In this document: positions 4,459 through 43,719 of the stretch, piece by piece | Position numbering within the stretch: position 1 is the stretch's first letter | Layout: every line of letters starts with the position of its first letter | Assembly (NCBI GenBank): GCA_965249715.1 | Contig: CBDFMP010000047.1 | Coordinates: 51,922 to 115,921 of the forward strand | Source: Spirochaetota bacterium | GTDB lineage: Bacteria > Spirochaetota > UBA12135 > COTS27 | Reading direction: 5' to 3' | Length of the DNA stretch: 64,000 nucleotides | The notes under the pieces: generated by a model | The model's database searches: none | What the model was told of the DNA's origin: nothing | Seen by the model: only the letters and a program-made list of their open reading frames with translations | Position numbers and translations under genes: made by a program

Positions 4459-5137
4459 TATGAGTAAAAAAGCAAGTAAACGTTATCGCGCGTTGCCGGT
4501 GGTTAGCGGTGAGCATGGGGTTGAGTCGGCGTTGCAGCAGGTGTTAAAACAAGCTAATGTTAAATTCGATGAAAATGTAGAAATGGCGATTGCGCTTAAT
4601 CTGCTAAAAAAACACGTTGTGCGGGATACAATGGTTCTGCCGCATAGCTTCGGTAAGGCAAAACGCGTGGTCGTGTTTGCAAAAGACAAACGTGCCGATG
4701 CGGCTAGTGCCGCGGGGGCGGATCACGTAGGTGGCGCTGAGTTGATCGATAAAATTAAGGGCGGTTGGCTGGATTTTGATGTGGCGATTGCTGCACCCGA
4801 TATGATGCGTGAGCTTGCGCGCATTGCGCAACTGCTGGGTACGCGCGGGTTGATGCCCTCGCCAAAAGCCAAAACCGTCACGCCCAATGTAGCGGAAGCT
4901 GTCAAAGCTGTCAAGGCTGGACGGCGCGAGTTTCGTGCGAATGGCGATGGGGTGCTTAATTTTGTAATCGGTAAAAAATCAATGCCCGTAGACGCTCTGC
5001 TTGAAAATGCACGTGTTTTTTACGAGGCTGTTTTGAAGGGAAAACCCGCGGACTTGAAAGGGGACTACATTCGTTCACTCTACGTGACCACGACAATGGG
5101 GCGTTCCATTAAGCTGGCTGCGCGCGCGTTGTTTTAG
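4448..5137 (+). CDS. rplA: 50S ribosomal protein L1
   Basis: 229 aa. Overlaps the rplK stop by 11 nt. L1-like sequence throughout. Confidence 0.95.
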
Positions 5138-6453: not shown

Positions 6454-9400
6454 TTGGAATCATTAGTTGCATCTCCTGCTGAAAAATCTAAAGTTGCCGT
6501 CAGTAGTGTGACGGTATTGCAAAAGCGTATGGCTGCCGGTTTTCCAGCTGGAGTCAATAATCGTATTTCTTTACAGAAGCGGGAAGGAAAAGACCTCCTG
6601 CCTATGCTTAATGAAACGCAGATAAACAGCTTTAAAGATTTTTTTCAGGAAGATATTCCGTTTGAAAAACGTCGGAACATTGGTTTACAGTACCTTTTTA
6701 AGTCCACGTTTCCATTTGAGTCCAGTGACGGCAAGGTGCGGCTGGAAGCTGATTATTACAAGGTTGGCAGCCGTTCCTTTTTGCCTGAAGAGGCGCTAGA
6801 AAAGGATAAAAGCTACACGGTGCAAGTTAGGGCCCTGGTTAAACTGTTTATTAAAGCCACCGGTGAGATTAAAGAGCAGGAAGTCTTTATTTGTGATATT
6901 CCTTATATGACTACGCAGGGAACCTTTATTATTAATGGTGCCGAACGTGTGGTAATCTCTCAGATTCATAGGAGCCCTGGCGTTATCTTTGATTATAATG
7001 AGCGCTTGGGGATTTATCACTCGCGGATTATTCCCGATAAGGGACCTTGGCTGGAATTTGAAATTATTCGCGATGTGTTTTATGTGCGCATCGATCGCAA
7101 AGCGCGTGTATTGCTGAGTGTTTTTCTTTCTGCATTGGGAATAGAAACGCGCGAGGATTTTATAGCCTTATTTCTTATTGCAGAAGAACAGAAAATTCCT
7201 GCTACGCTTGCCACCAAGGCGCGCGAAGTATTTATTGAAAGTTTGCTGGAACGGCGTGTTTTTACAGACTTAAAACGCTCAACAGACTCAGCTGAAGAAG
7301 AAAAACCTACGTATATTGTGCGTGCAGGCGATCGCCTGACAGAAGAACATCTGGAAGCAATTCTTGCAGCAGACTTTAAGCAACTCTCGCTCATTTCAGA
7401 GGAGAGTCTTGAAAAATATCAGTCCATTATCAACACGTTAGAGAAAGAGCCGGAATTTATGACGCAGGAAGATGCTTGTAAGTGGCTGCATCATATTATT
7501 AAGGGCAGTCATGCGGCTTCCGGCGCTGTTGCAATTAAAGAGGTTATTCCGTGTTTTCACTGCGAGACTTGTGAAGAAAAATGGCTGCAAATAAATTATA
7601 TGGATGTGAAAAAATGTCCAAGTTGCGGTAGTGAAAAATGGTTGCGCGTCGATAGATCTGTATTTTTTCATCCAGCTAACTATTCACTGGGTGAAGTCGG
7701 GCGTTATAAAATTGACAAAAAGTTTGGCAGTGATTTAGCTTCGCTTGCCATTACACTAGAAGATGTGCTCAATACGGTGCGCTACTTGCTCAATGTTAAA
7801 AACAATGAAGTTCCTGTTGATGATATTGATCACCTCGGCAATCGTCGTATTCGTTCCGTGGGCGAACAGCTGGTCAATCATCTTAAACCTTGTTTTGTGC
7901 GGATGGAGCGTTTGGCTAAGGATCGCATTACCATCCAGAATCACAGCACACTCACGCCGCAGAATCTTATTTCTGTTAAACCTATTGCCGGCGGCATTAA
8001 TGAATTTTTCGGCACCTCGCAGTTGTCACAGTTCATGGATCAAACCAATCCCTTGTCTTCTGTTACGCATAAGCGGCGCTTGAGTGCGCTGGGGCCTGGC
8101 GGTGTCACACGCGAGCGCGCCGGGTTCGAAGTACGCGATATTCACTACACACACTATTCACGCATGTGCCTTATAGAAACACCAGAAGGCCCCAATATTG
8201 GTCTCATTGTTTCACTGGCTTCGCATGCGCGCATCAATCCCTTTGGTTTCATCGAAGCACCGTATTATAAGGTGAAAGCTGGAAAGGTGACGGGGCAGAT
8301 AGAATATCTCTCAGCTATCGAAGAAGATCGTTTTGCTGTCGCGCCTATTGGCGTCCCAGTCGATGACAATGGCAAACTGCAAGCGGAAATGGTCCCTGTT
8401 AGAAAACGCGGCAATTATCCCATGCACTATGCCAAAGATGTCGATTATATGGATGTCGCCGCCAATCAAATTATATCGCTTTCAGCTTCATTGATCCCTT
8501 TTTTGGAACATGATGATGCTAATAGGGCGCTTATGGGCTGCAATATGATGCGTCAGGCTGTGCCGCTTTTGTTTCCACAGGCACCGATTGTGGGCACGGG
8601 CTTGGAGCATGTGATCGCGCGTTCTTCAGGATTTTGCAAGTTGGCGACGCGTGCAGGTACGGTAAAATACGTCGATAATGAGCGGATAGAATTGGCGGTA
8701 GGCGAGGAACTGATAGATGTTTATCGCATGAAAAAAACCAGCCGCACAAATCAGGATACGTTCTATAATCAACGTCCGCAAGTCATCCCCGGGGAAAAAG
8801 TAGAAGAAGGTAAAATTCTCTCCAGTGGTCCGGCTATTGTAGACGGAGATCTAGCATTGGGACGTAATGTTCTTGTGGCTTTCATGACTTGGGAGGGCTA
8901 TAATTACGAAGATGCCATCCTCATGAGTGAGAGCCTGCTTAAAGAAGATGCTTTTACATCTATTCATATTGAGGAACTGGATGTGGAGGCGCGTGAAACT
9001 AAACTGGGCATGGAAACCATCACGCGCGATATTCCCAATATCAGTGATGAAGATTATCGTGAGCTGGATGAGCGCGGAATTGTCAACATTGGTACGCGCG
9101 TCAAGTCCGGTAATATCTTAGTCGGCAAACTCACGCCTAAAAGTGTGACCGATACAACACCTGAATTCCGTTTGTTGTATTCTATTTTTGGCGAAAAAGC
9201 AAAAGATGCCAAAGATTCTTCCTTGCGTGTTCCCCACGGTACAGAAGGAATTGTTGTGGGTGTGCGCCACTACACGCGTGAGAATAGAGATGACCTGAGA
9301 CCGGGAACCTTGCAGAAAGTTAAGATTTATCTCGCCAAAAAACGCCGCTTGCGTGAAGGTGATAAATTTGCCGGACGCCATGGCAATAAGGGCATTGTCT

Positions 9401-14317: not shown

Positions 14318-15133
14318 TTGTTTGGGGTTTATACGCTGTATCAGTTGGGAGCGGATATGTTGGGTAGTACTGAAAAAAATCGCCAGATTAAAATAATTCG
14401 TATGCAATACGAAGAGCTTTCCACTAAGTGGGGCCATAATGTCAAAGAACTGGTGACACGTTTTGAAAAAAGATTTCAAGAGGCACGTAAGAATAAACAG
14501 GATATGGGAGTCTTTTTTACAGCGGAAAATGAGGCTATTAAGATCTTTGAAGAGCGCTTGCGCGATGGAGCTGATGAAGAGGAGCAAGAGCTGGAAAGGG
14601 AAGCTGAACAAAATTCCCCCGCTACTGGGCATCATGTTTCTACTATTGCTGAATATACGAATTATGAGCGTATTCATATTCATGAAAATGCATCAGCGGA
14701 GATTGAACATTTGTTTGGAGCGATGGTGGACTTCTCCAAGAAGCTTTTGCCTGTTTTGGAAGAGGTGCGTAAGCTTATTCGCGATAAAGCTTATCACAGC
14801 ATGAGTTATGAAATAGAGACTTTATTGCAAGATATCAGTCTTCAGCAGGAAGGGCGGCTGCCGAATGTATTTTCTGTTTATCGGGCAAAAGTTGTGCGCG
14901 CACGTAGCGGTGGAGAAGCTGAACGTGCACGTGCAGAGCCATTTAAGGCTATTTTAAATATTGCTCGTAAAGTCAAACGTTTGGGACGCTGGATTGAAAA
15001 TCATCATAGTAAGCTGCCCGCGTATATGCATGTCACCTACGATGGTGAAGGCCATTCGGCGCGCGAACTGGCAGTGATATCCGATGTGCAGCACATTGTG
15101 CGCAGTTTCGGATTGCAGGATTTTGCAGAATAA
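14318..15133 (+). CDS. hypothetical acidic protein
   Basis: 271-aa ORF directly downstream of rpoC with an Asp/Glu-rich middle segment. No family recognised. Its last ~55 nt seed the first unit of the tandem array that follows. Start could also be the M at 14354. Confidence 0.45.
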   Translation: MFGVYTLYQLGADMLGSTEKNRQIKIIRMQYEELSTKWGHNVKELVTRFEKRFQEARKNKQDMGVFFTAENEAIKIFEERLRDGADEEEQELEREAEQNSPATGHHVSTIAEYTNYERIHIHENASAEIEHLFGAMVDFSKKLLPVLEEVRKLIRDKAYHSMSYEIETLLQDISLQQEGRLPNVFSVYRAKVVRARSGGEAERARAEPFKAILNIARKVKRLGRWIENHHSKLPAYMHVTYDGEGHSARELAVISDVQHIVRSFGLQDFAE

Positions 15134-16245
15134 AAACGTCTAGCTTGGCAGTGCGGTTGTGCTTTGCGTGCTGGTCGCGCTTAGCGGCTGAGCCAGCTTT
15201 TCCAGCATTCGCCAATAAGTGTGCCTCCCACGGCGATGGCAATGACTGCAGGTGCAGCTGGAATATCTGACTATATGCTAAAAAAGATACCAAATCCTAT
15301 ATAAAATATATTCAGCAGGCTAGCGTAAACCATGGCACTGAATAAACTACGCGCGAACAGGAGCCGCAGTAGCGGCACCCAGCGCGCAAAAAGCGCGATG
15401 ATGAGGGTTATCCCTACTGCCTGAATGAGCGTGACAATGGCACAGGCACACAATAAGAGCAATCCCAGATGCAGGCGTTTAGTGGGAACTTTTTGTTAAG
15501 CTGATATCCGATGTGCAGCACATTGTGCGCAGTTTCGGATTGCAGGATTTTGCAGAATAAAAACGTCTAGCTTGGCAGTGCGGTTGTGTTTTGCGTGCTG
15601 GTCGCGCTTAGCGGCTGAGCCAGCGCTTTTCCAGCATTTGCCAATAAGTGTCCCACGGCGATGGCACTGAATAAGCTTACGCGCAAACAGGAGCCACAGT
15701 AGCGGCACCCAGCGCGCAAAAAGCGCGATGATGAGGGTGATCCCTACTGGAATGAGCGTGACAATGGCACAGGCACACAATAAGAGCAATCCCAGATGCA
15801 GGCGTTTAGTGGGAACTTTTCGTTAAGCTGATATCCGATGTGCAGCACATTGTGCGCTTCGGATTGCAGGATTTTGCAGAATAAAAACGTCTAGCTTGGC
15901 AGTGCGGTTGTGTTTTGCGTGCTGGCCGCGCTTAGCGGCTGAGCCAGCTTTTCCAGCATTCGCCAATAAGTGTGCCTCCCACGGCGATGGCAATGACTGC
16001 AGGTGCAGCTGGAATATCTGACCATACGCTAAAAAAGATACCAAATCCTATATAAAATATATTCAGCAGGCTGGCGTAAACCATGGCACTGAATAAACTA
16101 CGCGCGAACAGGAGCGCAGTAGCGGCACCCAGCGCAAAAAGCGCGATGATGAGGGTTATCCCTACTGCCTGAATGAGCGTGACAATGGCACAGGCACACA
16201 ATAAGAGCAACCCCAGATGCAGGCGTTTAGTGGGAACTTTTCTGA
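15077..16245. repeat. complex tandem array of three units (about 427, 327 and 415 bp). Each unit is the last ~55 bp of gene 14318..15133 plus the spacer plus the last ~300 bp of the permease gene (minus strand)
   Basis: Units begin with atatccgatgtgcagcacattgtgcg at 15077, 15504 and 15831. Copies differ by transitions, small indels and a ~100-bp internal deletion in unit 2. Only the last permease copy joins a full gene. The ORF-track pieces 15033..15293, 15271..15462, 15496..15789 and 15823..16044 are these fragments. Confidence 0.85.
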
Positions 16246-16783
16246 GAATGGCATAGTTTCGCTCGATGAAACTTAATTGCAGCTGGCGATAGCTTAAGAG
16301 AATAAAACCGATACTTGCAATGAGGACAGCTGTAATGAGTAACAGCTGAGTGTTGGTAATCAAAAAGAGTTCGCCAAAGAGCAGCGCTGAGAGGCTAGCT
16401 CCCAGCTGTTGTGTTTTTGTCAAAAAAATAATACCGCCGGCAATGCCGCTTGCCCAGAAGAGACTCAGCACAGTGTCTAATTTTGGACTTTCGCGCGCGC
16501 TCAGTACAGCAATGACAACTGCTGCACTCAGTGCTACGCTCAACGCACCCAGGAATGGGAAATTTAATGTGGCGCTCCATGTAGCTGGCAGCTGTTGATT
16601 GAGCAGCAACCCTAGGGCAATGCCGCCAAAACAGGTATGCGCTAAGCTTCCCGCCACATAAAGCAAACGTCGCGCAACAAGCAGTGTTCCCAGGATGCCG
16701 CTGAGTAGCCCCAAGGGGATGGCGCTTAACAGTGCGCGTTGAATAAAAGGTTCATTGAGATAAGCTTGCAGTTGTGTGAACAT
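15932..16783 (-). CDS. znuB: metal ABC transporter permease (ABC-3 / ZnuB-TroC family)
   Basis: 283 aa and polytopic. N-terminus MFTQLQAYLNEPFIQRALLSAIPLGLLSGILGTLLVARRL is typical of ZnuB/MntB permeases. Substrate could be Zn or Mn. Confidence 0.8.
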   Translation of the reverse strand: MFTQLQAYLNEPFIQRALLSAIPLGLLSGILGTLLVARRLLYVAGSLAHTCFGGIALGLLLNQQLPATWSATLNFPFLGALSVALSAAVVIAVLSARESPKLDTVLSLFWASGIAGGIIFLTKTQQLGASLSALLFGELFLITNTQLLLITAVLIASIGFILLSYRQLQLSFIERNYAILRKVPTKRLHLGLLLLCACAIVTLIQAVGITLIIALFALGAATALLFARSLFSAMVYASLLNIFYIGFGIFFSVWSDIPAAPAVIAIAVGGTLIGECWKSWLSR

Positions 16784-18052
16784 GGGAATGATAGAATGTC
16801 AATGTTTGTACAGGGTTGGCTGGATAATGGGCGGTGTTGAGGATGGTCTGCGGTTCTTAATCATGATAATGCGAATGGCTTAACATGGCGATTGTTTGCG
16901 GGTAGAGCTTAGCAGTACATTGTTTGTCAGGTATGCGCTAAGCTTCCCGCCACAGTAAACAAACGTCGCGCAACAAACAGTGTTCCCTGGATACCGCTGA
17001 GCAGCCCCAAGGGAATGGAGCTTAACAGAGTGCGCGTTGAATAAAAGGTTCATTGAGCTAAGCTTGCAAGTGTGCGAACATGGGAATGATAGAATGTCGA
17101 TGGTTGTACAGGATTGGCTGGATGCTGGGCGGCATTGAGGATGGTCTGCGGCTCTTAATCATGATAATGCGAGTGGTTTAACATGGCGATTGTTTGCGGG
17201 TAGAGCTTAGCAGTACATTGTTTGTCAGGTATGCGCTAAGCTTCCCGCCACAGTAAAGCAAACGTCGCGCAACAAACAGTGTTCCCTGGATACCGCTGAG
17301 CAGCCCCAAGGGAATGGAGCTTAACAGAGTGCGCGTTGAATAAAAGGTTCATTGAGATAAGCTTGCAAGTTGTGTGAACATGGGAATGATAGAATGTCAA
17401 TGTTTGTACAGGGTTGGCTGGATGCTGGGCGGCGTTGAGGATGGTCTGCGGCTCTTAATCATGATAATGCGAATGGTTTAACATGGCGATTGTTTGCGGG
17501 TAGAGCTTAGCAGTACATTGTTTGTCAGGTATGCGCTAAGCTTCCCGCCACAGTAAAGCAAACATCGCGCAACAAGCAGTGTTCCCAGGATACCGCTGAG
17601 CAGCCCCAAGGGAATGGAGTTTAACAGAGTGCGCGTTGAATAAAAGGTTCATTGAGCTAAGCTTGCAAGTGTGCGAACATGGGAATGATAGAATGTCGAT
17701 GGTTGTACAGGATTGGCTGGATGCTGGGCGGCATTGAGGATGGTCTGCGGCTCTTAATCATGATAATGCGAATGGTTTAACATGGCGATTGTTTGCGGGT
17801 AGAGCTTAGCAGTACATTGTTTGTCAGGTATGCGCTAAGCTTCCCGCCACAGTAAAGCAAACGTCGCGCAACAAGCAGTGTTCCCAGGATACCGCTGAGC
17901 AGCCCCAAGGGAATGGAGCTTAACAGAGTGCGCGTTGAATAAAAGGTTCATTGAGCTAAGCTTGCAAGTGTGTGAACATGGGGATGATAAAATGTCAATG
18001 TTTGTACAGGGTTGGCTGGATGCTGGGCGGCGTTGAGGATGGTCTGCGGCTC
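16784..18052. repeat. four extra ~300-bp tandem units between znuC and znuB. Each unit is the znuC 3' end plus the intercistronic spacer plus the znuB 5' end
   Basis: The znuC 3'-end marker catgataatgcgaatgg recurs at about 16863, 17163, 17463, 17762 and 18061 (last is genuine). The permease start cat...gaacatgggaatgatagaatgtc recurs at 16783 (genuine) and about 17080, 17380, 17678, 17977. Copies are diverged by SNPs and indels, and several pseudo-starts carry in-frame stops. Confidence 0.85.
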
Positions 18053-18937
18053 TTAATCATGATAATGCGAATGGTTTAACATGGCGATTGTTTGCGGGTA
18101 AAGCTTAGCGAGTGCATTGTTTGTGAACGCTGTTTTGGAAATGGTATGTACGGATTGTTTGACACAGAGCAGCTGATTGGAGAATTTGGGAGCTGCGTTG
18201 GTGTCATGTGAAACAATGAGAATGGTTTTGCCTTCAGCGCGCAGCTCTTGCAAAAGTTTATAAAAATGTGCTTCCGACTCTTCGTCAAGATTGGCAGTGG
18301 GTTCATCGAATAACAGGATGGGGGCATTGCTGATGAGTGCGCGTGCAATAGCGGCACGTTGCCGCTGTCCGGCAGAAAGTGTTATCAGCGGTACCGCAGT
18401 GAGTGCCTCCATTCCCACACGCAGCAAGGCCTTGTGAATACGCTCACGGCGTGCAGGCATGGCGGTGCGGATATTTTGGACAAATTGCCTAACTTGCTGC
18501 TTTAAAGACGGCAGTACAGGCTGAGCACTACGGATAGGGGATGATGGTTGTGAACGCTCAGTTTGTATGACGCCGCCCACACAACCAAGTGCAACATATT
18601 CTCCCAAACAAAGTGGAAAGGGGATGGGGGTGCCATGGCCGTAAGCAGCTGGCTGTTGTAAAACGCCATTGATGTAACGGCTGGGGAGCATGGCGGGTGT
18701 TAGCCCAGCAATATTGATGTTTCCCATTGTGGGATTGAGTTTGCCGCTGATGAGCATGAGGCACGTGGTTTTACCGCCGCCATTGGGGCCCAGTAAGGTA
18801 ACAATTTCACCTGCGGAGATGCTGAAACTAACAGCTTTAAGTGTTGGCTGGATTTGTGTGGGATAACGAAACGTGACCTTGTCGAAACACACTAGGGGCT
18901 TACCTTGCTGAGTGGTGGCGGCGGCGGTGATCGGCAT
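18053..18937 (-). CDS. znuC: metal ABC transporter ATP-binding protein (ZnuC-like)
   Basis: Walker A GPNGGGKT, signature LSAGQRQRAAIARAL, Walker B LLFDEP. Preferred start is MPITAAATTQQGKPLVCFDKV at 18937. The ORF track extends it to 19045, overlapping znuA. Confidence 0.8.
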   Translation of the reverse strand: MPITAAATTQQGKPLVCFDKVTFRYPTQIQPTLKAVSFSISAGEIVTLLGPNGGGKTTCLMLISGKLNPTMGNINIAGLTPAMLPSRYINGVLQQPAAYGHGTPIPFPLCLGEYVALGCVGGVIQTERSQPSSPIRSAQPVLPSLKQQVRQFVQNIRTAMPARRERIHKALLRVGMEALTAVPLITLSAGQRQRAAIARALISNAPILLFDEPTANLDEESEAHFYKLLQELRAEGKTILIVSHDTNAAPKFSNQLLCVKQSVHTISKTAFTNNALAKLYPQTIAMLNHSHYHD

Positions 18938-22426: not shown

Positions 22427-23242
22427 GTGAATTCACTGGTATCAGCATTAACGCGTATTGGGCAGTTAGAACGCCAATTTCAACAGTACTTCAGTAAAAC
22501 TGCGCCGCGCAATACGTTTACTGAAAGCAATGCTGCCTCAGCGCAGACCCCTGCTACTCCTACGGCAGCTTTATCACCATTTGCTACGTCGTTTGCCGCC
22601 ACTGATATTCTGCCGCAAAATTTATCCTCAGTGAATTTGGTTGATGGTCTAACAAATGGTCTAACCACCCAGTCTCCACTTGGCAATTTTAAGGAATTAC
22701 TTAACGCCAAGCTGCAATTAGCATCAGCGTCACCAACAACTGGCGGGCAGCAAACTGCAGTGAAGCAGCTTAAAACAAGCCCCATACAACAGGCGGCTCA
22801 GGTGCCTGTTGTACAAACAAGACAGTTAACGACTTTTCCTTTTCAGGCACAAATTACAGCTGCTGCAGAAGCCAATGGGTTGCCTGTCGCTTTGTTTCGC
22901 TCACTTGTAGCCGCTGAGTCGAATTTTAATCCACTGGCTGTATCGGCAAAAGGCGCTATGGGGCTGACTCAGCTTATGCCGCAAACGGCAGTCGCGCTTG
23001 GTGTCACGGAACCTTATGATGTGGAAGCCAATTTGCAGGGCGGCGCGCGCTACTTGCGAATGCTTTTGGATAAGTACGGCGGCGATTACGCTAAGGCGCT
23101 AGCGGCTTACAATGCCGGTGAGAAGGCTGTAGCACGTGCCGATGAGCTGAGTGGGGTCAGTGTGCCACCTTATGCTGAGACTAATCAATATGTGAAGCGT
23201 GTTTTAACAAGTTATTTAAAATATAGCGGGGTGAGTTTATGA
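22427..23242 (+). CDS. lytic transglycosylase (SLT domain) protein
   Basis: C-terminal AESNFNPLAVSAKGAMGLTQLMPQTA...AYNAG is the SLT catalytic core (ES...GLMQ...AYNAG). The N-terminal 130 aa are low-complexity. Possibly flagellum-associated, given its neighbours. Confidence 0.7.
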   Translation: MNSLVSALTRIGQLERQFQQYFSKTAPRNTFTESNAASAQTPATPTAALSPFATSFAATDILPQNLSSVNLVDGLTNGLTTQSPLGNFKELLNAKLQLASASPTTGGQQTAVKQLKTSPIQQAAQVPVVQTRQLTTFPFQAQITAAAEANGLPVALFRSLVAAESNFNPLAVSAKGAMGLTQLMPQTAVALGVTEPYDVEANLQGGARYLRMLLDKYGGDYAKALAAYNAGEKAVARADELSGVSVPPYAETNQYVKRVLTSYLKYSGVSL

Positions 23243-23862
23243 ATTTGGAACGTATTTTACGTATTGGCATATTACTGGTTGCAATTGGGTTAGGAGGATT
23301 GGTATTACTTTTTTTTATTGAGCAACAGCTGTTTATAACGGCTTATTCAAGCTTGAAAAGCAATTTGCCTGCCTTTTTGGTGAGTCAACCCAAACAAGAG
23401 CCCAGTCAGAGTGCTGAGCGTGCACGCGAATTGCAACTCTTAGCGGAAGAAGAACGTGCTAAGCTGCAAGAAAGCTTTTTTTTGCGTGAAAGCGGGCTTG
23501 CTGCAAAAGAGGCTATGCTGTTAGTTCTTGAACAGGAATTGCAAACTGAGCGTACCAATTTAATAACTGAACGTGAAGAGCTTCTGAAAATACGCGAACG
23601 TGCGGATACATTGGCGGCTGAAGCAGCCAGCTATGATAAAAAAATACAGGAGCTGGCGGAACGTTTTTATAATATGCCGCCACAAGCTGCTGCACCACGG
23701 ATTGTGGCATTGGAAGACGATATTCTTATTATCGACGTGCTTGCAGCCATGGATCTGGTCGCTGCTGAAAATGATCAACTTTCAATTGTGCCATTTCTGC
23801 TTTCATTAATGCCTGCAGAAGTTTCGGCGCGCATCATGAAAAAAGCGACAGTTGAGTTGTAA
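23239..23862 (+). CDS. single-pass membrane coiled-coil protein (FlbB/MotE-like, MgtE_N-like C-terminus)
   Basis: 207 aa. N-terminal TM helix, charged coiled coil, C-terminal IVALEDDILIIDVLAAMD...LMPAEVSARIMKK. Start overlaps the stop of the upstream gene by 4 nt. Confidence 0.4.
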   Translation: MNLERILRIGILLVAIGLGGLVLLFFIEQQLFITAYSSLKSNLPAFLVSQPKQEPSQSAERARELQLLAEEERAKLQESFFLRESGLAAKEAMLLVLEQELQTERTNLITEREELLKIRERADTLAAEAASYDKKIQELAERFYNMPPQAAAPRIVALEDDILIIDVLAAMDLVAAENDQLSIVPFLLSLMPAEVSARIMKKATVEL

Positions 23863-24813
23863 GCTGATTGTTCCCTAACCGTAAGCTTCAGGCAGCGGTT
23901 AATCACTAAAAGCTATAATCCTATAAACGCAGCAGCTTGTTTTAGCGGTTATGCTAGAATTAGGTGTTTGTTCGGCATAGTTTATTATTAAATGACCGAA
24001 CAGGTGTGACTAAATTAAACTTGTGGCAAAAAACTATCAAACACTCAGCTTTCAATTGTGCCATCTCTGCTTTCATTAATGCCTGCAGAAGTTTCGGCGC
24101 GCATCATGAAAAAAGCGACAGTTGAGTTGTAAGCTGATTGTTCCCTAACCGTAAGCTTCAGGCAGCGGTTAATCACTAAAAGCTATAATCCTATAAACGC
24201 AGCAGCTTGTTTTAGCGGTTATGCTAGAATTAGGTGTTTGTCCGGTATAGTTTATTGTTAAAGGATCGAATAGGTGTGACTAAATTAAACTTGTGGCAAA
24301 AAACTATCAAACACTCAGCTTTCAATTGTGCCATCTCTGCTTTCATTAATGCCTGCAGAAGTTTCGGCGCGCATCATGAAAAAAGCGACAGTTGAGTTGT
24401 AAGCTGATTGTTTCCTAACCGTAAGCTCCAGGCAGCGGTTAATCACTAAAAATTATAATCCTATAAACGCAGCAGCTTGTTTTAGCGGTTATGCTAGAAT
24501 TAGGTGTTTGTCCGGCATGGTTTATTATTAAATGACCGAATAGGTGTGACTAAATTAAACTTGTGGCAAAAAACTATCAAACACTCAGCTTTCAATTGTG
24601 CCATCTCTGCTTTCATTAATGCCTGCAGAAGTTTCGGCGCGCATCATGAAAAAAGCGACAGTTGAGTTGTAAGCTGATTGTTCCCTAACCGTAAGCTCCA
24701 GGCAGCGGTTAATCACTAAAAACTATAATCCTATAAACGCAGCAGCTTGTTTTAGCGGTTATGCTAGAATTAGGTGTTTGTCCGGCAGTTTATTGTTAAA
24801 GGATCGAATAGGT
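23863..24813. repeat. three extra ~270-bp tandem units between the FlbB-like gene and the AlkD-like gene
   Basis: Unit = internal fragment of the downstream gene (cognate at 24952-24990) fused to the last ~70 bp of the upstream gene, plus the spacer, plus the first ~40 bp of the downstream gene. The marker ctaaattaaacttgtggcaaaaaactatc recurs at about 24010, 24281 and 24551. The genuine junction is at 24811. Confidence 0.85.
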
Positions 24814-25545
24814 GTGACTAAAGCAGCGGAAATAACAAAAGCGTTATTACGTTATCAGAATAAGGTGAAATTAGCCTTTTTCCCGAGATATTTTAAAACA
24901 GGTAAAGGCGAATACGCTGAAGGTGATGAGTTTCTTGGCGTTACCGTGCCCAATATTAAACTTGTGGCAAAAAATTATCAAACACTCAGTTTTCCAGAGC
25001 TTAAGGAAGTTTTAGCGTCACCTAAACACGAGGTTCGTCTATTGGGCGCCCATGTCCTGGTTGCGCAGTTTGCGCGCGCGCGTACGCGTGCAGAACAAAC
25101 TGCCGTTTATCGTTTTTATTTGCAAAATTTGACAGGAATTAATCATTGGGATATTGTGGATGCCAGCACGCATAAGCTCATTGGTGTTTATGTGTTGTCG
25201 CTTACAGCGGCTGAACGCGATGCCGTCCTGGTGCCGCTTGCGGAACATTGTAATGTATGGCGCAGACGTGTGGCTTTGGTAGCAATGTATCGTTTGATCA
25301 AGGAACGCGAACTGGTTTATGTCAGCAAATTTCTCACACGTTTTGTTGCAGATGATCATCAGCTTATTCATAAAGGTTTGGGCTGGATGTTGCGCGAACT
25401 GGGTAAATATGCTCCAGAACGACTTAGTCGTTTTTTACATAAGTACCATCGCCGCTTAGCAGCGGTGACCATTTGTTACGCCACAGAGAAAATGGCGCGC
25501 TCAGAACGTGCGCTTTATTATAAACGCAAATCAAAATCAGGTTAA
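24778..25545 (+). CDS. DNA alkylation repair protein (AlkD/AlkC-like HEAT-repeat family)
   Basis: 255 aa. FFPRYFKTGKGEYAEGDEFLGVTVP...HEVRLLGAHVLV...INHWDIVD matches the DNA_alkylation family pattern. The ORF-track start is a TTG at 24778; an alternative GTG at 24814 follows aagga. Confidence 0.7.
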   Translation: MSGSLLLKDRIGVTKAAEITKALLRYQNKVKLAFFPRYFKTGKGEYAEGDEFLGVTVPNIKLVAKNYQTLSFPELKEVLASPKHEVRLLGAHVLVAQFARARTRAEQTAVYRFYLQNLTGINHWDIVDASTHKLIGVYVLSLTAAERDAVLVPLAEHCNVWRRRVALVAMYRLIKERELVYVSKFLTRFVADDHQLIHKGLGWMLRELGKYAPERLSRFLHKYHRRLAAVTICYATEKMARSERALYYKRKSKSG

Positions 25546-31052: not shown

Positions 31053-31898
31053 ATGACAGACGCAGCTGATGATGGAACAAATGTCCCGCTTGTCCCGCTG
31101 CCAAGTACTTTGCGCCGGCAGCTTGAGCAGCTGGCAGCTGAGCTCCGCGCGTGTACTGGAGGGCGTGTACTTTTTATAACAGGCGCTGGTGTTTCGGCAG
31201 AATCGGGTTTGCCCACTTATCGCGGCACGGGCGGACTTTACAATCAGACTGTTACAGCAGCTGGGCTTCCTATTGAAACCGTGCTTTCTGGAACGGTTAT
31301 GCAAACACAACCTGCGCTGACTTGGAAATATTTACAGGCAATGGAACAGGCTGCGCGCGGAAAACAACCCAATGCAGCACATATTGCCATTGCGCAGTTT
31401 GAAGCGTTTTTTACAACCATTGTTCTGACGCAGAATATTGACGGGCTGCATACTCAGGCTGGTTCAGCTGCGGTTATTGAAATTCATGGCAGCCTTTACC
31501 GCTTGCGTTGTACGGCTGCTGCATGTCCATGGGAAGCGACGGTTGCCAATTATGCGCACTTAGCGCCGCTGCCGCATTGCCCACGTTGTGATGCACTTAT
31601 GCGTCCCTGTGTGGTTTTATTTGGTGAAATGCTTCCCGCAGCTGCGCTGGAACAGCTGGAGCAGGCGCTGGCGGAGCCTTTTGCAGCTGTTTTTATTGTG
31701 GGAACGACGGCTGTATTTCCTTATATTCGTGCACCGCTACTTGCCGCACAACAAGCCGATATTTTAACGGTTGAAATTAATCCAACTCCCACTGAGCTTT
31801 CCGCTGTATGCAAGTACAGTTTGCGAGCGCAAGCAGGAGCCGTCCTCAGTGCGCTTCATGCAATGCTTGCGGCGGGGGAAGAACAGCATGAAAAGTAA
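31053..31898 (+). CDS. cobB: NAD-dependent protein deacylase (sirtuin, CobB-like)
   Basis: 281 aa. GAGVSAESGLPTYRG, TQNIDGLH, catalytic HG, and Zn-binding CTAAAC...CPRCD pairs. Confidence 0.85.
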   Translation: MTDAADDGTNVPLVPLPSTLRRQLEQLAAELRACTGGRVLFITGAGVSAESGLPTYRGTGGLYNQTVTAAGLPIETVLSGTVMQTQPALTWKYLQAMEQAARGKQPNAAHIAIAQFEAFFTTIVLTQNIDGLHTQAGSAAVIEIHGSLYRLRCTAAACPWEATVANYAHLAPLPHCPRCDALMRPCVVLFGEMLPAAALEQLEQALAEPFAAVFIVGTTAVFPYIRAPLLAAQQADILTVEINPTPTELSAVCKYSLRAQAGAVLSALHAMLAAGEEQHEK

Positions 31899-32329
31899 AA
31901 AGCGGCAGCGAACGTTTACACCCTGCACGCGCTGTTCAACTTAGCTTGGCAATACTTGTTTGAGCGTGTTGAGCAGCTCCTTATTCGCGTTGTTATGCGC
32001 TTATGCGCCCTGTGTGGTTTTATTTGGTGAATGCTTCGCAGCTGCGCTTCATGCAATGCTTGCGGCGGGGGGGAAGGACAGCATGAAAAGTAAAAAGCGG
32101 CTGCGAACGTTTACACCCCGCGCGCGCTGTTCAACTTAGCTTGGCAGCAAGCACTTGTTTGAGCGTGTTGAGCAGCTCCTTATCCGCGTTGTTATGCGCT
32201 TAAGGCGTCCCTGTGTGGTTTTAACTTTGGTAGAACTGCTTCGCGCAGCTGCGCTGCAACAGCAGGAGCCGTCATCAGTGCGCTTCATGCAATGCTTGCG
32301 GCAGCGAACGTTTACATCCCGCGCGCTGT
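31899..32329. repeat. two extra ~195-bp tandem units between the convergent sirtuin and GT9 genes
   Basis: Each unit contains the sirtuin 3' end (gcgcttcatgcaatgcttgcggc), an internal sirtuin fragment (cognate at about 31585-31640, CDALMRPCVVLFGEMLP) and the GT9 3' end. The marker cttagcttggca recurs at about 31941 and 32136. The genuine copy is at 32331. Confidence 0.8.
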
Positions 32330-33532
32330 TCAACTTAGCTTGGCAGCAAGCACCTGTTTGAGCGTGTTGAGCAGCTCCTTATTTTGGTATTGTTTCATGC
32401 ACTGAATGTCATTGGGACAGTTTTTATTCAGACACCTATACGATGTGCGAATGGGCGCTTTTTTTATGTAAGGACAATCATAAGCTGCCATGAGCGCAGC
32501 ACTGTGCCTGCTGCGGGCAGTGGCTGCTAGTGCTTGAGCATAAACAGGACTTTGCCGTTCTCTGTTGGTGGGCCCAAAGCAGGTAATAACGGCTTTGCCC
32601 ATTAGCTCGGCAATATAGGCTGGCCCGCTGTCTGCTGCAATGACAAGCTGGGCAAGGCCGATGAGCGCAAACAATTCGCTCAGTGTGGTGGGCGGTGCAA
32701 GGATGATTTTTTGCGGATAGCTGCGCTGGACAGCCTGTGCCTGCGCAGCGTGTGCCTTGTGGGCACTGAGGATAAGCGGACTTTGGGTATGCGCATAAGT
32801 GGCATTGATGATGAGAGCCAGCAGCTCAGTGCCCAGGTCACGTGTATAAAAGGTGCTCCATGGGGCAAGGACAATGACACGTTTGAGGCCTGCTTGTTTG
32901 ATGAACTGGCGCATATGTTTGAGTGCTGCTGCGGCAAACTGAAAGCGAATGAGTGCATTCTGGAGCGCAGGCACTTCTCCTGCTGCTGCTGCAGCGGGTA
33001 CGCTTGCTGGGGTGTGCGGGGTTGTTGCTGGGGCTAGGCTGTGGTGCAGGGAGCTATGGATGCCAAGTGGTTTCAGCAACTCAAGATTTTTATCAATAAT
33101 GTTTAGCGCCTGCCCGCGCACGCGTGTACTGTACCACCAGTGACTGCCTTCACGGCTTTCTGCGGCACTAAAACCAATGTGCTTAACACCGCGCATGAGC
33201 CGCGCAATGATCGCCGATTTTAAAAGTCCCTGCGGATCAATGATGGCGTCATAATAACGGGCACGCAGACGATGTAAACAGCGTTCGCGTTTGAAGTGGC
33301 TGAGACTGCGGAAGCTACTTCGCAATGTGACTTTTTGTGGCAGCGGGATGCTGATGATTTCATCGACAGCACTAAAATGCGCCACCACCTCAGCAAATGC
33401 CTCAGCGACTACCCAGGTGATAAATAGCTGCTCGCCGCGCTCCCGATGATAGCTTTCCAGACGACTGAGCAGGATACTGCTGTGGAGGATATCGCCCATA
33501 GAAGAAAGGCGGACGATTGCGTAACGGATCAT
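32330..33532 (-). CDS. glycosyltransferase family 9 (ADP-heptose:LPS heptosyltransferase-like)
   Basis: 400 aa. N-terminal IVRLSSMGDILH is the hallmark GT9 motif (compare WaaC/WaaF). Confidence 0.8.
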   Translation of the reverse strand: MIRYAIVRLSSMGDILHSSILLSRLESYHRERGEQLFITWVVAEAFAEVVAHFSAVDEIISIPLPQKVTLRSSFRSLSHFKRERCLHRLRARYYDAIIDPQGLLKSAIIARLMRGVKHIGFSAAESREGSHWWYSTRVRGQALNIIDKNLELLKPLGIHSSLHHSLAPATTPHTPASVPAAAAAGEVPALQNALIRFQFAAAALKHMRQFIKQAGLKRVIVLAPWSTFYTRDLGTELLALIINATYAHTQSPLILSAHKAHAAQAQAVQRSYPQKIILAPPTTLSELFALIGLAQLVIAADSGPAYIAELMGKAVITCFGPTNRERQSPVYAQALAATARSRHSAALMAAYDCPYIKKAPIRTSYRCLNKNCPNDIQCMKQYQNKELLNTLKQVLAAKLS

Positions 33533-36600: not shown

Positions 36601-37467
36601 TTAGCTTTTACGGGAATGTACTGTTTGTATGAATTTTATGCACATTGCAGCGAAAGCAGCTGGCTGCTCAACGTGCAGGAGATGGCTGGTGGCGGGCAAT
36701 GTTTGCAGCTGATAACGCGGGAAATAAGCACCAAGCTTGGCAGTTTCACGCGCGCCCATGTAGGGGCTGTTTTCAGCGCGGATAAATAACACGGGCAATG
36801 TAGCGATGGCACTGGTGCTAACGGGCTTTGGAATGGCGGCGATAACTTCAGCGCGGCGTTCATAAAGCACTGGCAGATTGCATTGCCAACTGAGCTTGAT
36901 GGGTCCGTTTTTGTGCGCTGGAAGAATTTTTAAATTTTTAAGCAGGAAATTTATCATGATAGGGCTTTTGATCACTGATGTTAAGTGTTTGGCTACAGCA
37001 GCGCGCGAATTAAAAGTGTTCAGCTTGAGCGCGTAAAGTGCTTTAACATAAGGTTCGCTGTAAGCACTGGCGTAGGCACAGGGAGCTATATCGCCAACGA
37101 TCACACACTGCAGCTTTATCTGTGCGCGCGCGGCAACAGCCATCGCCACTTTCCCGCCCATAGAATGACCGATGAGGATTGGCCGGCTTAGTTTGTGAAT
37201 ACGGATGAATGTTTCGATGTCTTCTGCCATAGCGGAATAACTCATGTCATCGGCATGCGGTGACATGCCGTGATTGCGAAGCTCTACCAAATAAAAATGT
37301 GCGCGTCCAGTACTGATGTGCAAACTGATGGCATTTTTCAGCCCCAGCATATTGCTGTGCGATGCCAGATAACCATGCAGCAAGATAAAATTTGCAGCTG
37401 TGGGCGCTGTAGCGGCGGAGTTTTGTGCTGTTATGCTAAAGTGTTTATAAAAAAGGCTCAGTGCCAT
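36601..37467 (-). CDS. alpha/beta-fold hydrolase
   Basis: 288 aa. Nucleophile elbow GHSMGG. Confidence 0.75.
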   Translation of the reverse strand: MALSLFYKHFSITAQNSAATAPTAANFILLHGYLASHSNMLGLKNAISLHISTGRAHFYLVELRNHGMSPHADDMSYSAMAEDIETFIRIHKLSRPILIGHSMGGKVAMAVAARAQIKLQCVIVGDIAPCAYASAYSEPYVKALYALKLNTFNSRAAVAKHLTSVIKSPIMINFLLKNLKILPAHKNGPIKLSWQCNLPVLYERRAEVIAAIPKPVSTSAIATLPVLFIRAENSPYMGARETAKLGAYFPRYQLQTLPATSHLLHVEQPAAFAAMCIKFIQTVHSRKS

Positions 37468-37487
37468 AGTATGACAGAGGGATGCGC

Positions 37488-37612
37488 TTAGTGAAGTGAG
37501 CTTAGTGAAGTGAGCTTAGTGAAGTGAGCTTAGTGGAGTGAGCTTAGTGAAGTGAGCTTAGTGGAGTGGGCTTAGTGAGTGGGCCTGGTTAGTGAGCTTG
37601 GTGGTGGGGGGG
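37488..37612. repeat. about seven tandem 14-bp units (gcttagtgaagtga) degenerating into a G9 homopolymer
   Basis: The tract lies between the yejF stop (37616) and the hydrolase start (37467), within ~100 bp upstream of the hydrolase gene. Confidence 0.85.
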
Positions 37613-37615
37613 GGC

Positions 37616-39283
37616 TTATGGTGGCGTTTTGGATAGGAATGCTGCAGCAAGCAAGCTTGCTGTGTAGGGATCTTTGGGTGTTTTAAAAATGTTTTTTGTG
37701 CTGCCCTGCGCACGGATAATGCCGTTTTGCATAACAATAATGTTATCGGCTAGTGCGCGAATAACGCGTAAATCATGCGATATGAACAGGTAGGCAAGTT
37801 GTGTTTCAGCTTGAATATTGAGCAAGAGGTCAATAAGTTTTTGTTCCAATGAAACATCCAATGAAGAGGTGGGTTCATCGAGGATGAGCAGCACGGGTTT
37901 AAGGATAAGCGCGCGTGCAATCGCCACACGCTGGCGTTCGCCGCCCGAAAATTCGTGCGGGTAGCGATTTTCCATCTTGCGGCTGAGTTCCACTTGTGCC
38001 ATGACGGCACGCACTTTCTGACTGAGCGCAGTGCGTGTGAGTGTGGGAGCATGCAGCCGCAGCCCTTCACTGATGATGTCAAAAATGGTCAGCCGCGGTG
38101 AAAGCGAGGCGAAAGGATCTTGAAAGACCACTTGCATGGTGCGCCGCAACGCACGCAGCTGCGCACCGCGTGCCTGGTGCAGCGGCGCGTCCGCCAATAA
38201 AATACTTCCACTGGATGGAATTAGCCGCAAAATCGCTAATGCCAATGAGCTCTTACCGGACCCGGATTCACCGATGACACCAAGTGTTTGCCCCGCCGCT
38301 AAACTAAAACTAAGCTCTTTAACGGCGTGAATACTTCCCAGCTGGCGTCTGAGCACAGCGGACTTAAGCGGATAATGGACATTGAGCTGAGCAACCTTGA
38401 GGACGGGCGATGCCAAGTTTTGATGTTTCAATACCCTGCGTGTGAGCGGCTTAGGCGAAGCATTGAATAATTCCCGTGTGTAAGCGGCCTTGGGGTTGGC
38501 GAGGACGGTTGCGGTGCGTCCTTGTTCAACAATTTTGCCGTGCCGCATGATCGCGACGTCGTCTGCAAAGTGGCGAACAAGATTGAGATCATGGGTGATG
38601 AAAAGATAACTGAGTTTGAAGCGTACTTGCAGCTCTTTGAGCAATTTTAAAATTTCAGCTTGTACCGTAACATCCAGCGCTGTCGTGGGTTCATCGGCAA
38701 TGAGCATTTCGGCTTTACCGGCAAGCGCCATGGCAATCATCACGCGTTGGCGTTGGCCGCCTGAGAGTTCGTGCGGGTAGCGCATGGCGAAGGCTTTTGT
38801 GGCGGGCAGCTGAACTTGTGTTAGCAGCTCTAAGCTGGCATCAAGGTTTTTACGCGCATGTTTGGTATTGCTGCCTTGGCGGATGTTTTCGGAGAGCTGT
38901 GCGAAAACGGTTTGCAATGGGTTGAGGGAAGTCATCGGGTCTTGAAACACATAGCTGATGCGTTTGCCGCGCAGGCGGCACAGCGCGCTGATGGGAATGT
39001 CTAGAATTTCCAGCTCGCCAAAACGAATACTGCCGCTCAGTTCCGGAAGAATGTGCGGCGGAATCAACCGTGTGAGCGCCAGCGCACTAAGCGATTTGCC
39101 CGACCCGGACTCGCCTACCAATGCCAGTGTGCGTTGACGTCTCAGTTTAAAGCTGATGCCGCGCACAACCTCGCTGCGCTGACCGTCAGAGGTAATGTTG
39201 ATGCGTAAATCCTTAACGGTGATGAGGGTTTGATCGCCTTTTATCTGTGACAATTGGGGGGAGTCAGCATGGGCGGTGTTCAT
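37616..39283 (-). CDS. yejF: peptide/microcin-type ABC transporter, fused double ATP-binding protein (YejF-like)
   Basis: 555 aa. Two complete ABC cassettes: GESGSGKS twice, plus [15 protein letters not shown] and [15 protein letters not shown]. Confidence 0.85.
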
Positions 39284-40399: not shown

Positions 40400-41485
40400 T
40401 TACCCTTCACGTCTTTCAAAATCAATGCGCGGGTCAATGATAACATAAAGGATGTCGGAAACTAGTTTTAAAATGAGTCCCAATAAAGAGAAAAAAAACA
40501 AACTGGCAAACATCACCGGGTAGTCATGACGAATGGTTGCTTCAAACCCTAAGAGCCCAAGTCCATCCAAGGAAAAGATCACTTCAATAAGCAGTGACGA
40601 TGTGAACAAGAGTCCCACTAAGATACTTGGAAAAGAAGAGATGATGAGCAGCATGGCATTTCTAAATACGTGGCGCATAAGGATTTGCCCTTCACTCAGA
40701 CCTTTTGCCCGCGCGGTGATCACATAATGTTTATGAATTTCATCAATAAAGGAATTTTTGGTGAGCAGGGTGAGCCCGGCGAAACCGGAGATGGTCATGG
40801 CTAATACGGGGAGGGCGAGGTGATGAAAATAGTCGCCGAGCTTGCTCCAAAAGGAGAGCTCGGCAAAATTTTCACTGACCAATCCGCGCAACGGGAACCA
40901 CTGAAAATATTCACCGCCCGCAAAAACGATGATCAGAAAGATGGCGAAGAGAAAATTGGGAATGGCATAACCAATGGTGATCATGGCACTGCTTGTCAGG
41001 TCAAAACGGCTGCCATCGCGTACTGCTTTGCGGATGCCCAAGGGGATGGAGATAAAATAAATGATGAGAGTCGTCCAGATGCCAAGCGAGATGGAGACAG
41101 GCAGTTTTTCAATGATCAACTCCACCACGCTGCGATCACGATAAAAACTTTCGCCAAATTGAAAAGTAAAATACCTTTTAAGCATACCCATAAACCGTTC
41201 CAACGGCGGTTTATCAAGACCGTAGAGGGCCGTCAGTTCAGTGCGCAGCTCAGCCTCCAGTCCGCTTGCGCCCCGGTAGCTCGATGCACCGCTTGAAAGG
41301 TTTTCGCTGCCGCCTTCGCTTGTAAGGCGCGCCAACATGCCGCTATCGCCGCTGTGGCTGAGGCGCGCCATCATGTCTTCTACAGGGCCGCCGGGGACAA
41401 ACTGGATGACAAGGAAGTTTATCGTCATAATCCCGACGAGTGTTGGAATGATGAGCAGGAGGCGTTTAATGATGTAAAGTGTCAT
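40400..41485 (-). CDS. yejB: ABC transporter permease (OppB/YejB-like)
   Basis: 361 aa. N-terminal TM helix, then the conserved permease core. Confidence 0.8.
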
Positions 41486-41578
41486 CGTGATGCACTGATA
41501 CGCTTGCAGGATTATGCGTGCTGAGCCGCTGGTTTATACTGGGATGCAAGAGGGCTAAACTGACTGATGTAAGCCATT

Positions 41579-41720
41579 GGCAGTTGGCGCAGTTGGCAGT
41601 TGGCAGTTGGCAGTTGGCAGTTGGCAGTTGGCAGTTGGCAGTTGGCAGTTGGCAGTTGGCAGTTGGCAGTTGGCAGTTGGCAGTTGGCAGTTGGCAGTTG
41701 GCAGTTGGCAGTTGGCAGTG
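41579..41720. repeat. heptanucleotide microsatellite (GGCAGTT)n, about 20 units, one variant unit
   Basis: Near-perfect array in the 266-bp spacer between yejA and yejB. Confidence 0.95.
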
Positions 41721-41751
41721 TGGGGTATTGCTGTGAGGTATCCGTGTAAGC

Positions 41752-43719
41752 TTAGCGTGTGAAGGAGAACTGGGCACTGAGCGCACGAGCTTTTTCTGCA
41801 TCAATCCACCATGCGGTGAACGGCACGCCATAAGGCGGAGCTGTCTTGGGTTTGCCAAAGCGTTCCCAGTACAGGACGCGAAAAGAGGCAATGTACCATT
41901 GCGGGATAATGTAATGTTCCCAGCGCAAGATCCTATCCAAGGCACGCGTATGGGCTAGCAGCTCAGTGCGTGTACGGGTGGCAATCAGTTTTTCAACAAC
42001 TTCATCAATAACAGGATTTTGAATGCCGATGAGATTGCGCGACCCCGGTGTTTGTGCGGCTTGCGAGCTCCAGAAATCGCGTTGTTCGTTGCCCGGTGAA
42101 CTGGACTGACCAAATGTGCCGATGATCATATCAAAGTCAAATTTTTGCACAATATTCTCATATTGCGCAGTATTGATGGTGGCAACCTGAACCTTGATGC
42201 CCAATTTTTTCATATTTTGCACAAAAGGATTGACGATGCGTTCAAAGGCAGCGAGTACAAGGAGGATTTTAAATTCCATGCGCTTGCCGCTTGTGTTATG
42301 GACGCGCATGCCGTTTTGGACAGTCCAGCCTGCTTCATTGAGCAGGGCTGTAGCTTTACGTAGGTTCGCGCGGATATTGCCGGAGCCGTCTGTTTGTGGG
42401 GGCGTGTAAACCTGGGTGAAGACTTCATCGGGAATGCGCCCTTTATACGGCTTAAGGATTTTAAGTTCGGCGGGACTGGGCAGTCCTTTTGCCGATAACT
42501 CACTATTGTTGAAATAGCTGTTTGCGCGGGTGTAGGCATTGTAAAAAAGCACGCGGTTAGACCACTCAAAGTCAAACGCATAAGCTAATGCTGCGCGTAC
42601 ACGTCTGTCTTTGAAGATGTTTTTGCGGATATTGAAGACAAACCCCTGCACGCCTTGTGGATTTTTATCGGGAATAAGACTTTTTTTGAGCAGCCCGTTT
42701 TTGACGGCAGTAATATCGTAGCTGGTTGCCCAGGCCTTGGAATTGTTTTCGTTCAGAAAGTCAATTTTCCCGGAGCGCAGTGCTTCGCGGATGATGTCCA
42801 AACTCTTGTAGTAGTCGTAACGAATTTCATCAAAATTGTCAAAGCCTTTTTTGATCGGGACGTTGCGCCCCCAGTAGTCGGGCATACGTTCATAAGTAAT
42901 AGATTTACCAGGGCGCACATTTTTTATTTTATAAGGACCACTGCCTAGCGGCGCTTTTAAGGTGGTTTTACTGAAGTCGCGGGTGGCCCAATAGTGTTTG
43001 GGCAGGATCACCAATTGACCAAGGATGAGGGGGAGCTCGTGATTGGCTGTGGAGAAGTCAAAGCGCACCACGCGCGGGGCTGTTTGTGTGACACTTTTTA
43101 CATTTTTATAATAAACGCGATAAAACGGCGCGCCTTTTTCTACAAGCGCGTTAAATGTCCAGATCACATCGGCAGGTGTGACAGGTTTGCCATCATGCCA
43201 GCGCGCTTCTTTACGCAAGGTAAATGCCACCCAGCGCCGTGTATCGTCGTAATGAATACGCTCTGCCAGCAGTCCGTACTCGACGCTTTTTTCATCCAGC
43301 GTGCTAGCGGTGAGCGTATCGTAAATATTGCCGATGCCATCCCCGCTTTCGCCTTTAATAATAAACGGGTTCAGGTTATCGAAACTGCCCAATGCACCAA
43401 GTACTACTTTGCCGCCCTTGGGCGCATTGGGATTCACGTAAGCTAAATGTTTAAAATTGTCTGAATACTTCGGTTTGCCGTGTATGCTAACGGCATGCGA
43501 ACCGGTTTTGCTGCTTTGTGCCAGAAGGTTGAGACTTAGTAAGCTGAGTACAAGTAAGAGTGATTGCCAGAATAGTGCTGGCGGGTGTTTATCCGCTAAG
43601 CGACTGAATAGTTGAAAGGGAGTTTTAAATTTTATAATCATCTTGACCTTCTTTTGATAGTTTGACTTTTGAATTGTAAATGATTGTTGTTTGCACGGAG
43701 CAGTTTTAAGGTAAACCAA
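41752..43719 (-). CDS. yejA: ABC transporter substrate-binding protein, family 5 (YejA/OppA-like)
   Basis: 655 aa with a signal peptide. First gene of the yejABEF-like operon. Confidence 0.8.

Follow-up and report, generated by a model that had tools for sequence, protein, structure and literature searches.

The interval between a FlbB-like flagellar gene and an AlkD-like DNA alkylation repair gene of an uncultured spirochaete is filled almost entirely by a tandem array of 270-bp units, in which the tail of the upstream gene, the intergenic spacer, the start of the downstream gene, and a fragment from inside the downstream gene are joined head to tail. The array is one of five large-period arrays in the window (the whole 64,000-nt stretch of DNA that we analyzed), all of them on gene ends. 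We consider it likely that mutation left the array behind as a neutral by-product, by way of duplication of the gene junction, deletion, and amplification with exchange among units, and that the array is not a device.

Anatomy of the array and its flanking genes

Tandem Repeats Finder (TRF) placed the array at 23775-24822, with a period of 270, 3.9 copies, 96% matches, no indels, and a score of 1956. The same 270-bp register was recovered by repeat finding and by self-BLAST of the window. The gap between the stop codon of flbB (23862) and the GTG start codon of alkD (24814) measures 951 nt, nearly all of it repeat. Pairwise alignment of the four units upheld the mosaic anatomy and gave a mean column identity of 94%, flanks counted, and sequence comparison showed that all pieces of the unit are colinear and in their native orientation. 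The features of the array and of the two flanking genes are as follows.

23239-23862, plus strand: FlbB-like flagellar collar gene, 207 aa, intact (NCBIfam NF047368, collar_FlbB)
23779-24048, plus strand: unit 0, made of the FlbB tail (23779-23862), the spacer (23863-24005), GTGACTAAA (24006-24014), and the AlkD-internal piece (24014-24048)
23876-23901, plus strand, with repeats at 24146, 24416, and 24686: hairpin TAACCG-N14-CGGTTA, in all four units
24014, plus strand, also 24284 and 24554: junction J1, AlkD nt 9 (24822) joined to nt 142 (24955) with a 1-nt overlap
24048/24049, plus strand, also 24318/24319 and 24588/24589: junction J2, AlkD position 24989 joined to FlbB position 23779
24049-24318, plus strand: unit 1, an extra copy with all four segments (TRF, alignment, self-BLAST)
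24319-24588, plus strand: unit 2, an extra copy with all four segments (TRF, alignment, self-BLAST)
24589-24822, plus strand: unit 3, a dead copy of the FlbB tail and the native spacer, running into the true AlkD start (alignment)
24762-24770, plus strand, also 23952, 24222, and 24492: extended -10-like motif TGcTAGAAT, 44 nt upstream of the GTG of AlkD
24814-25545, plus strand: AlkD-like DNA alkylation repair gene, 243 aa, intact (PF08713 at 2e-45)
24955-24989, plus strand: counterpart of the internal fragment within AlkD, IKLVAKNYQTLS, with one mismatch to the array copies

Each extra unit consists, in order, of 84 nt of FlbB tail, 143 nt of spacer, 9 nt of AlkD start, and 35 nt from inside AlkD; the segments sum to 270 nt, with one base common to both sides of the first join. 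The first copy of the repeated tail is the 3' end of the FlbB-like gene itself (84 nt, stop codon included), and the copy of the AlkD start in unit 0 (24006-24014), GTG ACT AAA, corresponds to codons 1 to 3 of alkD. The internal piece, ATTAAACTTGTGGCAAAAAACTATCAAACACTCAG, lies at 24014, 24284, and 24554 and is identical to 24955-24989 of the AlkD-like gene at 34 of its 35 positions; 100 shuffles gave 0 matches to it, and 0 are expected by chance. In unit 3, the native spacer carries a 2-nt deletion. The array also yields junk open reading frames (ORFs) of 41 to 53 aa and false gene fragments.

A sequence-only reading of this DNA had proposed a 270-bp mosaic tandem unit of these four parts, three extra units, and a 35-bp AlkD-internal piece with its cognate at about 24952-24990. 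The unit was borne out by TRF, self-BLAST, and alignment, the three extra copies were confirmed by the four-unit alignment, and the cognate was found at 24955-24989. The other three segments are likewise present, at lengths that changed on measurement: the FlbB tail spans 84 nt (23779-23862), not about 70 bp; the spacer, given as about 150 bp, measures 143 nt; and the AlkD start, given as about 40 bp, contributes only 9 nt of coding sequence, the earlier count having begun at the TTG at 24778.

The FlbB-like protein matched NF047368 (periplasmic-type flagellar collar protein FlbB) at 2e-27 over profile positions 17-191 of 193, with a score of 96 bits that falls below the curated cut-off of 110 bits, and its 207 aa gave no Pfam match. 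FliJ-like and flagellar lytic-transglycosylase-like genes lie upstream of it. On the other side of the array, the start of AlkD at GTG 24814 was placed by alignment with nine homologues and by an identical 243-aa public gene call (P0001); the closest homologue is 46% identical and has an unrelated gene context. The C terminus of the AlkD-like protein (25451-25545) reads LAAVTICYATEK, compared with a near-invariant MPRTMLRYAIEK in the nine homologues; constraint may have been relaxed, or function altered, in this lineage.

We examined the two junctions of the unit by sequence comparison and frame arithmetic. J1, which reads ...GTGACTAA[A]TTAAACTTG... and has one A common to both sides, amounts to the loss of 133 nt with a shift of frame. 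Its flanks are similar at just 4 of 11 positions and overlap by 1 nt; the deletions in the sister arrays described below use repeats of 6 to 10 nt. J2 reads ...CACTCAG/CTTTCAATTG..., and its parental sites, TCAGTTTTCCA and TCAACTTTCAA, have 8 of 11 bases in common (two 11-mers drawn at random from the region match this well with P about 0.0025), with no exact overlap left at the join. Two readings of these joins were rejected. A deletion between ACTAAA and ATTAAA does not account for J1, because the array keeps both motifs (ACTAAATTAAAC), and the unit does not encode an in-frame chimeric protein, because of the frameshift at J1 and because the 53-aa ORFs read the FlbB tail in another frame.

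Unit differences and sister arrays

The units differ at 13 positions, in both unit-specific and shared patterns and with one 2-nt indel included. The FlbB-tail copies of units 1 to 3 all have C where the functional flbB has T, and the three array copies of the AlkD piece all have C where the native AlkD has T. These shared substitutions, absent from the native genes, indicate that time passed between founding and amplification and that the founder copy aged first. Furthermore, sites 109 and 133 group units 0 and 1 against units 2 and 3, whereas sites 208, 214, and 217 group units 0 and 2 against units 1 and 3. Such conflicting groupings fail the four-gamete test and thus point to exchange or gene conversion among the units; failure of this kind is expected where homologous misalignment makes arrays expand and contract.

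The differences are not spread evenly. Eight of the 13 fall within unit positions 193-222, the 30 nt just upstream of the AlkD start (23971-24000, 24241-24270, 24511-24540, and, in the native copy, about 24781-24808; scan P about 0.001). This stretch is an imperfect inverted repeat, TGTTCGG...CCGAACA, that is perfect in unit 0 only, and within the array units 1 and 3 have AAAGGAT, which is Shine-Dalgarno-like, and units 0 and 2 have AAATGAC. Quasi-palindrome templated mutation, gene conversion, and selection on the leader are all possible sources of the cluster. Pure neutral decay does not predict such clustering upstream of the AlkD start, and the cluster counts against the explanation that we favor.

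Using TRF and self-comparison of the 64 kb, we found four further large-period arrays in the window, each on gene ends.

15075-16242, no strand assigned: sister array (a), on the convergent tails of the gene at 14318-15133 (plus) and an ABC-3 permease gene (15932-16783, minus) (self-BLAST)
16632-18124, minus strand: sister array (b), 299 bp x 5 at 95%, made of an ABC ATPase tail, spacer, and permease head
31847-32383, no strand assigned: sister array (c), on the convergent tails of a Sir2-family gene (plus) and a GT9 heptosyltransferase-family gene (minus)
57296-58423, plus strand: sister array (d), period 520, about 2.2 copies, with a unit that combines the tail of ORF 54092-57445 with the downstream spacer

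Counting the array at flbB, large-period arrays overlap gene termini in five cases out of five and include pieces of both flanking genes in four. TRF gave sister periods of 299 (5 copies at 95%) and 199 (2.6 copies at 83%), and self-BLAST gave periods of about 330 to 430; the period-520 array has 92% identity over 593 aligned columns. Array (b) has a simple, nonmosaic unit. In array (a), unit I is full length, and unit II has lost about 90 nt, bounded exactly by ATGGCAaTGA and ATGGCAcTGA, direct repeats identical at 9 of 10 positions. The units of array (c) open with a Sir2-internal piece (cognate at about 31577-31662) and then pass straight to the tail of that gene; the deletion end points differ between units 2 and 3, lying at a TGCGCT repeat in one of them and at AGC..GGAGC in the other. 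The two units hold distinct deletions of a single longer ancestor, which indicates that those deletions postdate the duplication. Internal deletions of units, as seen in arrays (a) and (c), do occur in this genome.

Self-BLAST of the window showed no sequence shared between the arrays. This result points to a process and not to a mobile element, and a mobile or REP-like element was rejected on the same ground. Tandem repeats make up 5.3% of the window by TRF and about 8.4 to 9% when the arrays that TRF missed are included; the five large-period arrays alone account for 8.4%. With five such arrays in 64 kb, the genome appears to produce them frequently or else to be poor at removing them.

Repeats of other kinds are present in the window as well. 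At 41577-41719, a 7-nt repeat (TTGGCAG x 20, 97% identity) overlaps listed minus-strand ORFs, including 41466-41945, and could be slippage-prone. A 14-nt repeat, GCTTAGTGAAGTGA, occurs 8.6 times at 37486-37603, between the minus-strand ORFs 36601-37467 and 37616-39283. ORF 54092-57445, whose 3' tail lies in the 520-nt array, encodes 1117 aa with a lipoprotein-like N terminus and no Pfam match, and it holds internal repeats of about 100 nt (56083-56884) of the NxxAGGIxGY type. Downstream, ORFs 58617-60746 and 60542-63817 are large and overlapping, carry repeats about 1541 nt long (59356-63051; 84% identity), and gave no Pfam match. There is an apparent frameshift between these two ORFs, and their N terminus is similar to that of ORF 54092-57445. 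They probably form a repetitive surface protein family.

Origin of the mosaic unit

The explanation that we favor has three steps. In the first, an illegitimate tandem duplication of about 403 nt, from 23779 (84 nt before the FlbB stop) to 24989 (AlkD nt 176), would have joined the imperfectly similar sites TCAaCTTTCaA and TCAgTTTTCcA and created J2. In the second, a 133-nt deletion of AlkD nt 10-142 from the redundant, truncated AlkD head would have created J1, joining the 9-nt start out of frame to the 35-nt internal piece and leaving the 270-nt unit. The arithmetic closes (84 + 143 + 176 = 403; 403 - 133 = 270). In the third step, which is partly shown, the founder extra copy would have gained at least two substitutions and then been amplified to three extra copies, as the long repeats slipped or exchanged unequally, and the units would have exchanged or converted sequence among themselves. 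At least four other gene ends in the 64 kb would have undergone the same process. When a duplication spans a gene junction, its first copy still contains a complete upstream gene and its last copy a complete downstream gene, whether the pair is co-directional, convergent, or divergent, and such a duplication should escape purifying selection. The location of all five arrays on gene ends would then follow if only such duplications are tolerated by selection.

The sequence-only reading had inferred template jumps instead of unequal crossing-over from the use of an internal AlkD fragment. Although the mosaic anatomy behind that inference stands, the jumps themselves are not required, since the pieces keep their native order and orientation and the sister arrays carry secondary deletions. 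In its fullest form this alternative is one complex event, in which a stalled fork makes two template switches (AlkD nt 9 to nt 142, then nt 176 back to the FlbB tail) and homologous slippage then amplifies the product. We regard such an event as unlikely. It fits the almost complete lack of microhomology at J1, which resembles some template-switch joins, and the imperfectly similar sites at J2, and no 403-nt unit from before the deletion is preserved among the units of the array at 23775-24822. The absence of that intermediate also means that the first two steps of the favored pathway could have been a single event. However, with the order and orientation exactly native, the second jump is superfluous; the secondary deletions of the sister arrays fall at different points in different units; and the fixed substitutions imply a multistep history anyway.

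Comparison with described mechanisms leads to a similar balance. Like products of FoSTeS/MMBIR, the unit joins three nonadjacent template stretches through two joins with little homology; unlike them, its pieces are colinear and direct, with no inversions or templated insertions. Duplication plus deletion explains the unit as well as FoSTeS/MMBIR does, and the sister arrays support the former. The direct head-to-tail arrangement and the novel join J2 between short similar sites (8/11) recall microhomology-mediated tandem duplication (PMC3411829), from which the array differs in its imperfect microhomology, in the 1-nt overlap at J1, and in being fixed and amplified and not a transient variant in a subpopulation.

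We also considered a functional regulatory array, in which AlkD or flbB expression would be adjusted by the multiplication of terminator hairpins, promoters, or 5' leaders, with copy number serving as a contingency switch. This is improbable, more so than the complex event above. Every unit carries the hairpin, as the sequence-only reading had pointed out, along with the TGcTAGAAT motif, which is invariant across all four units. The proposed role of the hairpin as a terminator found no support: its 6- to 7-bp stem encloses a 14-nt loop and has no T-run, ATCACTAAAAGC follows directly, its fold is no more stable than those of shuffled sequences (z = -1.18), and a terminator scan called no site anywhere in the array. 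An intrinsic terminator was rejected on these scan and fold results. A structured RNA was rejected too, given that the whole unit folds no better than shuffles (z = -1.19) and that Rfam 15 returned no family, its sole hits being two at chance level (E 0.7 to 0.9), far below the gathering score.

The TGcTAGAAT motif, which a simple sigma-70 scan did not call, is a possible candidate for the AlkD promoter, and the extra units may carry spare copies of it. The clustering of variable sites in the AlkD leader, where AAAGGAT and AAATGAC alternate between units, would also suit a regulatory role. Against such a role, similar arrays lie on unrelated gene pairs, including convergent tails that have no promoter logic, the units contain frameshifted gene debris, and AlkD is an improbable target for phase variation. 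The genes on either side are intact, no sign of a function emerged, and the array is probably nonfunctional. Finally, expansion or invention of the repeat by the assembler is very hard to credit, even with a single assembly of the organism in the collections searched, because the units differ at 13 positions, a 2-nt indel among them, because four other arrays with distinct internal deletions lie in the same window, and because assemblers tend to collapse, not expand, such repeats.

Relatives, precedents, and significance

We looked for relatives of the locus at the levels of protein, DNA, and genome. The PEP carboxylase of the organism is 66% identical to that of "Spirochaetes bacterium COTS27," a starfish subcuticular symbiont; this was the best match in a genome scan whose other matches to the protein were also distant. 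The PEP carboxylase locus of COTS27 is not syntenic and holds no comparable junction arrays, the tandem repeats there being coding or short-period. In the sequence AP019861.1 of COTS27, the nearest relative with a sequenced genome, 357-nt coding repeats at 4043-4727 and 6723-7765 are common to two adjacent large ORFs upstream of the PEP carboxylase gene; assembly gaps in COTS27 have been attributed to tandem repeats in genic regions (PMC7444263), and the 357-nt repeats agree with that attribution. The FlbB-like, PEP carboxylase, and AlkD-like proteins are singletons in a collection of 15 billion proteins, all on one 228,857-bp NCBI/ENA contig, and look-ups of the three exact proteins returned no further contig. 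Scans of metagenome contigs, with the FlbB tail plus spacer as a DNA pattern and with the FlbB-like protein as a guide, returned nothing, and the genome is absent from the GTDB species representatives searched.

Among known systems, the genome of Ehrlichia ruminantium, rich in tandem repeats, comes nearest. Its repeats, treated by Collins et al. (PNAS, 2005), reportedly also yield truncated gene fragments, and Frutos et al. (J Bacteriol, 2006) are said to have dealt with the repeats of this genome as well. The arrays described here resemble those of E. ruminantium in their period of 100 to 500 bp, high identity, few copies, position in and around intergenic regions, and, within the window, high density, in their location at gene boundaries with truncated gene fragments (five of five arrays on termini), and in belonging to a host-associated bacterium. 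The two cases differ in that E. ruminantium is an alphaproteobacterium with 27% GC, compared with about 46% GC in this member of the Spirochaetota, and in that the E. ruminantium case is defined by copy-number variation between isolates, whereas the array here is known from one assembly.

In E. ruminantium, tandem repeats occupy 6.3% of the genome, with a mean period of 139 bp and 4.8 copies, according to Table 4 of PMC3287509. The same source, where it deals with this genome, calls that load the highest for a bacterium at the time and gives 0.38% for E. coli; the repeat work is summarized there and in PMC10710844. The load here is 5.3 to 9% of one 64-kb window, to be set against 6.3% genome-wide in E. 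ruminantium. A second resemblance is to VNTR-105 and VNTR-141 of Wolbachia, which, in the section of PMC3287509 that describes them, are intergenic and have long composite periods, hairpins, and internal deletions in some periods. That section attributes them to slipped-strand mispairing and concerted evolution, and, unlike the Wolbachia loci as described in it, the units here are visibly built from flanking coding sequences.

Taken alone, the array is debris left by an ordinary mechanism, and it is notable as one of five in 64 kb. The five arrays record different stages, from a simple junction duplication through units with private deletions to a trimmed and reamplified unit, and these stages indicate that mosaic units can arise without exotic mechanisms. 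The array also carries a warning for annotation, through the junk ORFs and false gene fragments that it produces. Reasoning from E. ruminantium, we put forward, as a tentative idea that we hold with less than even confidence, that this organism represents a second, phylogenetically independent genome of the same kind, in which junction duplications arise, decay, and reamplify continually at a density matching the bacterial record. If so, its arrays would form a natural time series of the birth and erosion of bacterial duplications and could seed new small ORFs or alter the expression of flanking genes. Moreover, if the density seen here holds genome-wide, the E. ruminantium phenomenon would extend to the Spirochaetota, and the arrays would serve, as they stand, as VNTR markers in a symbiont lineage that has been sampled little.
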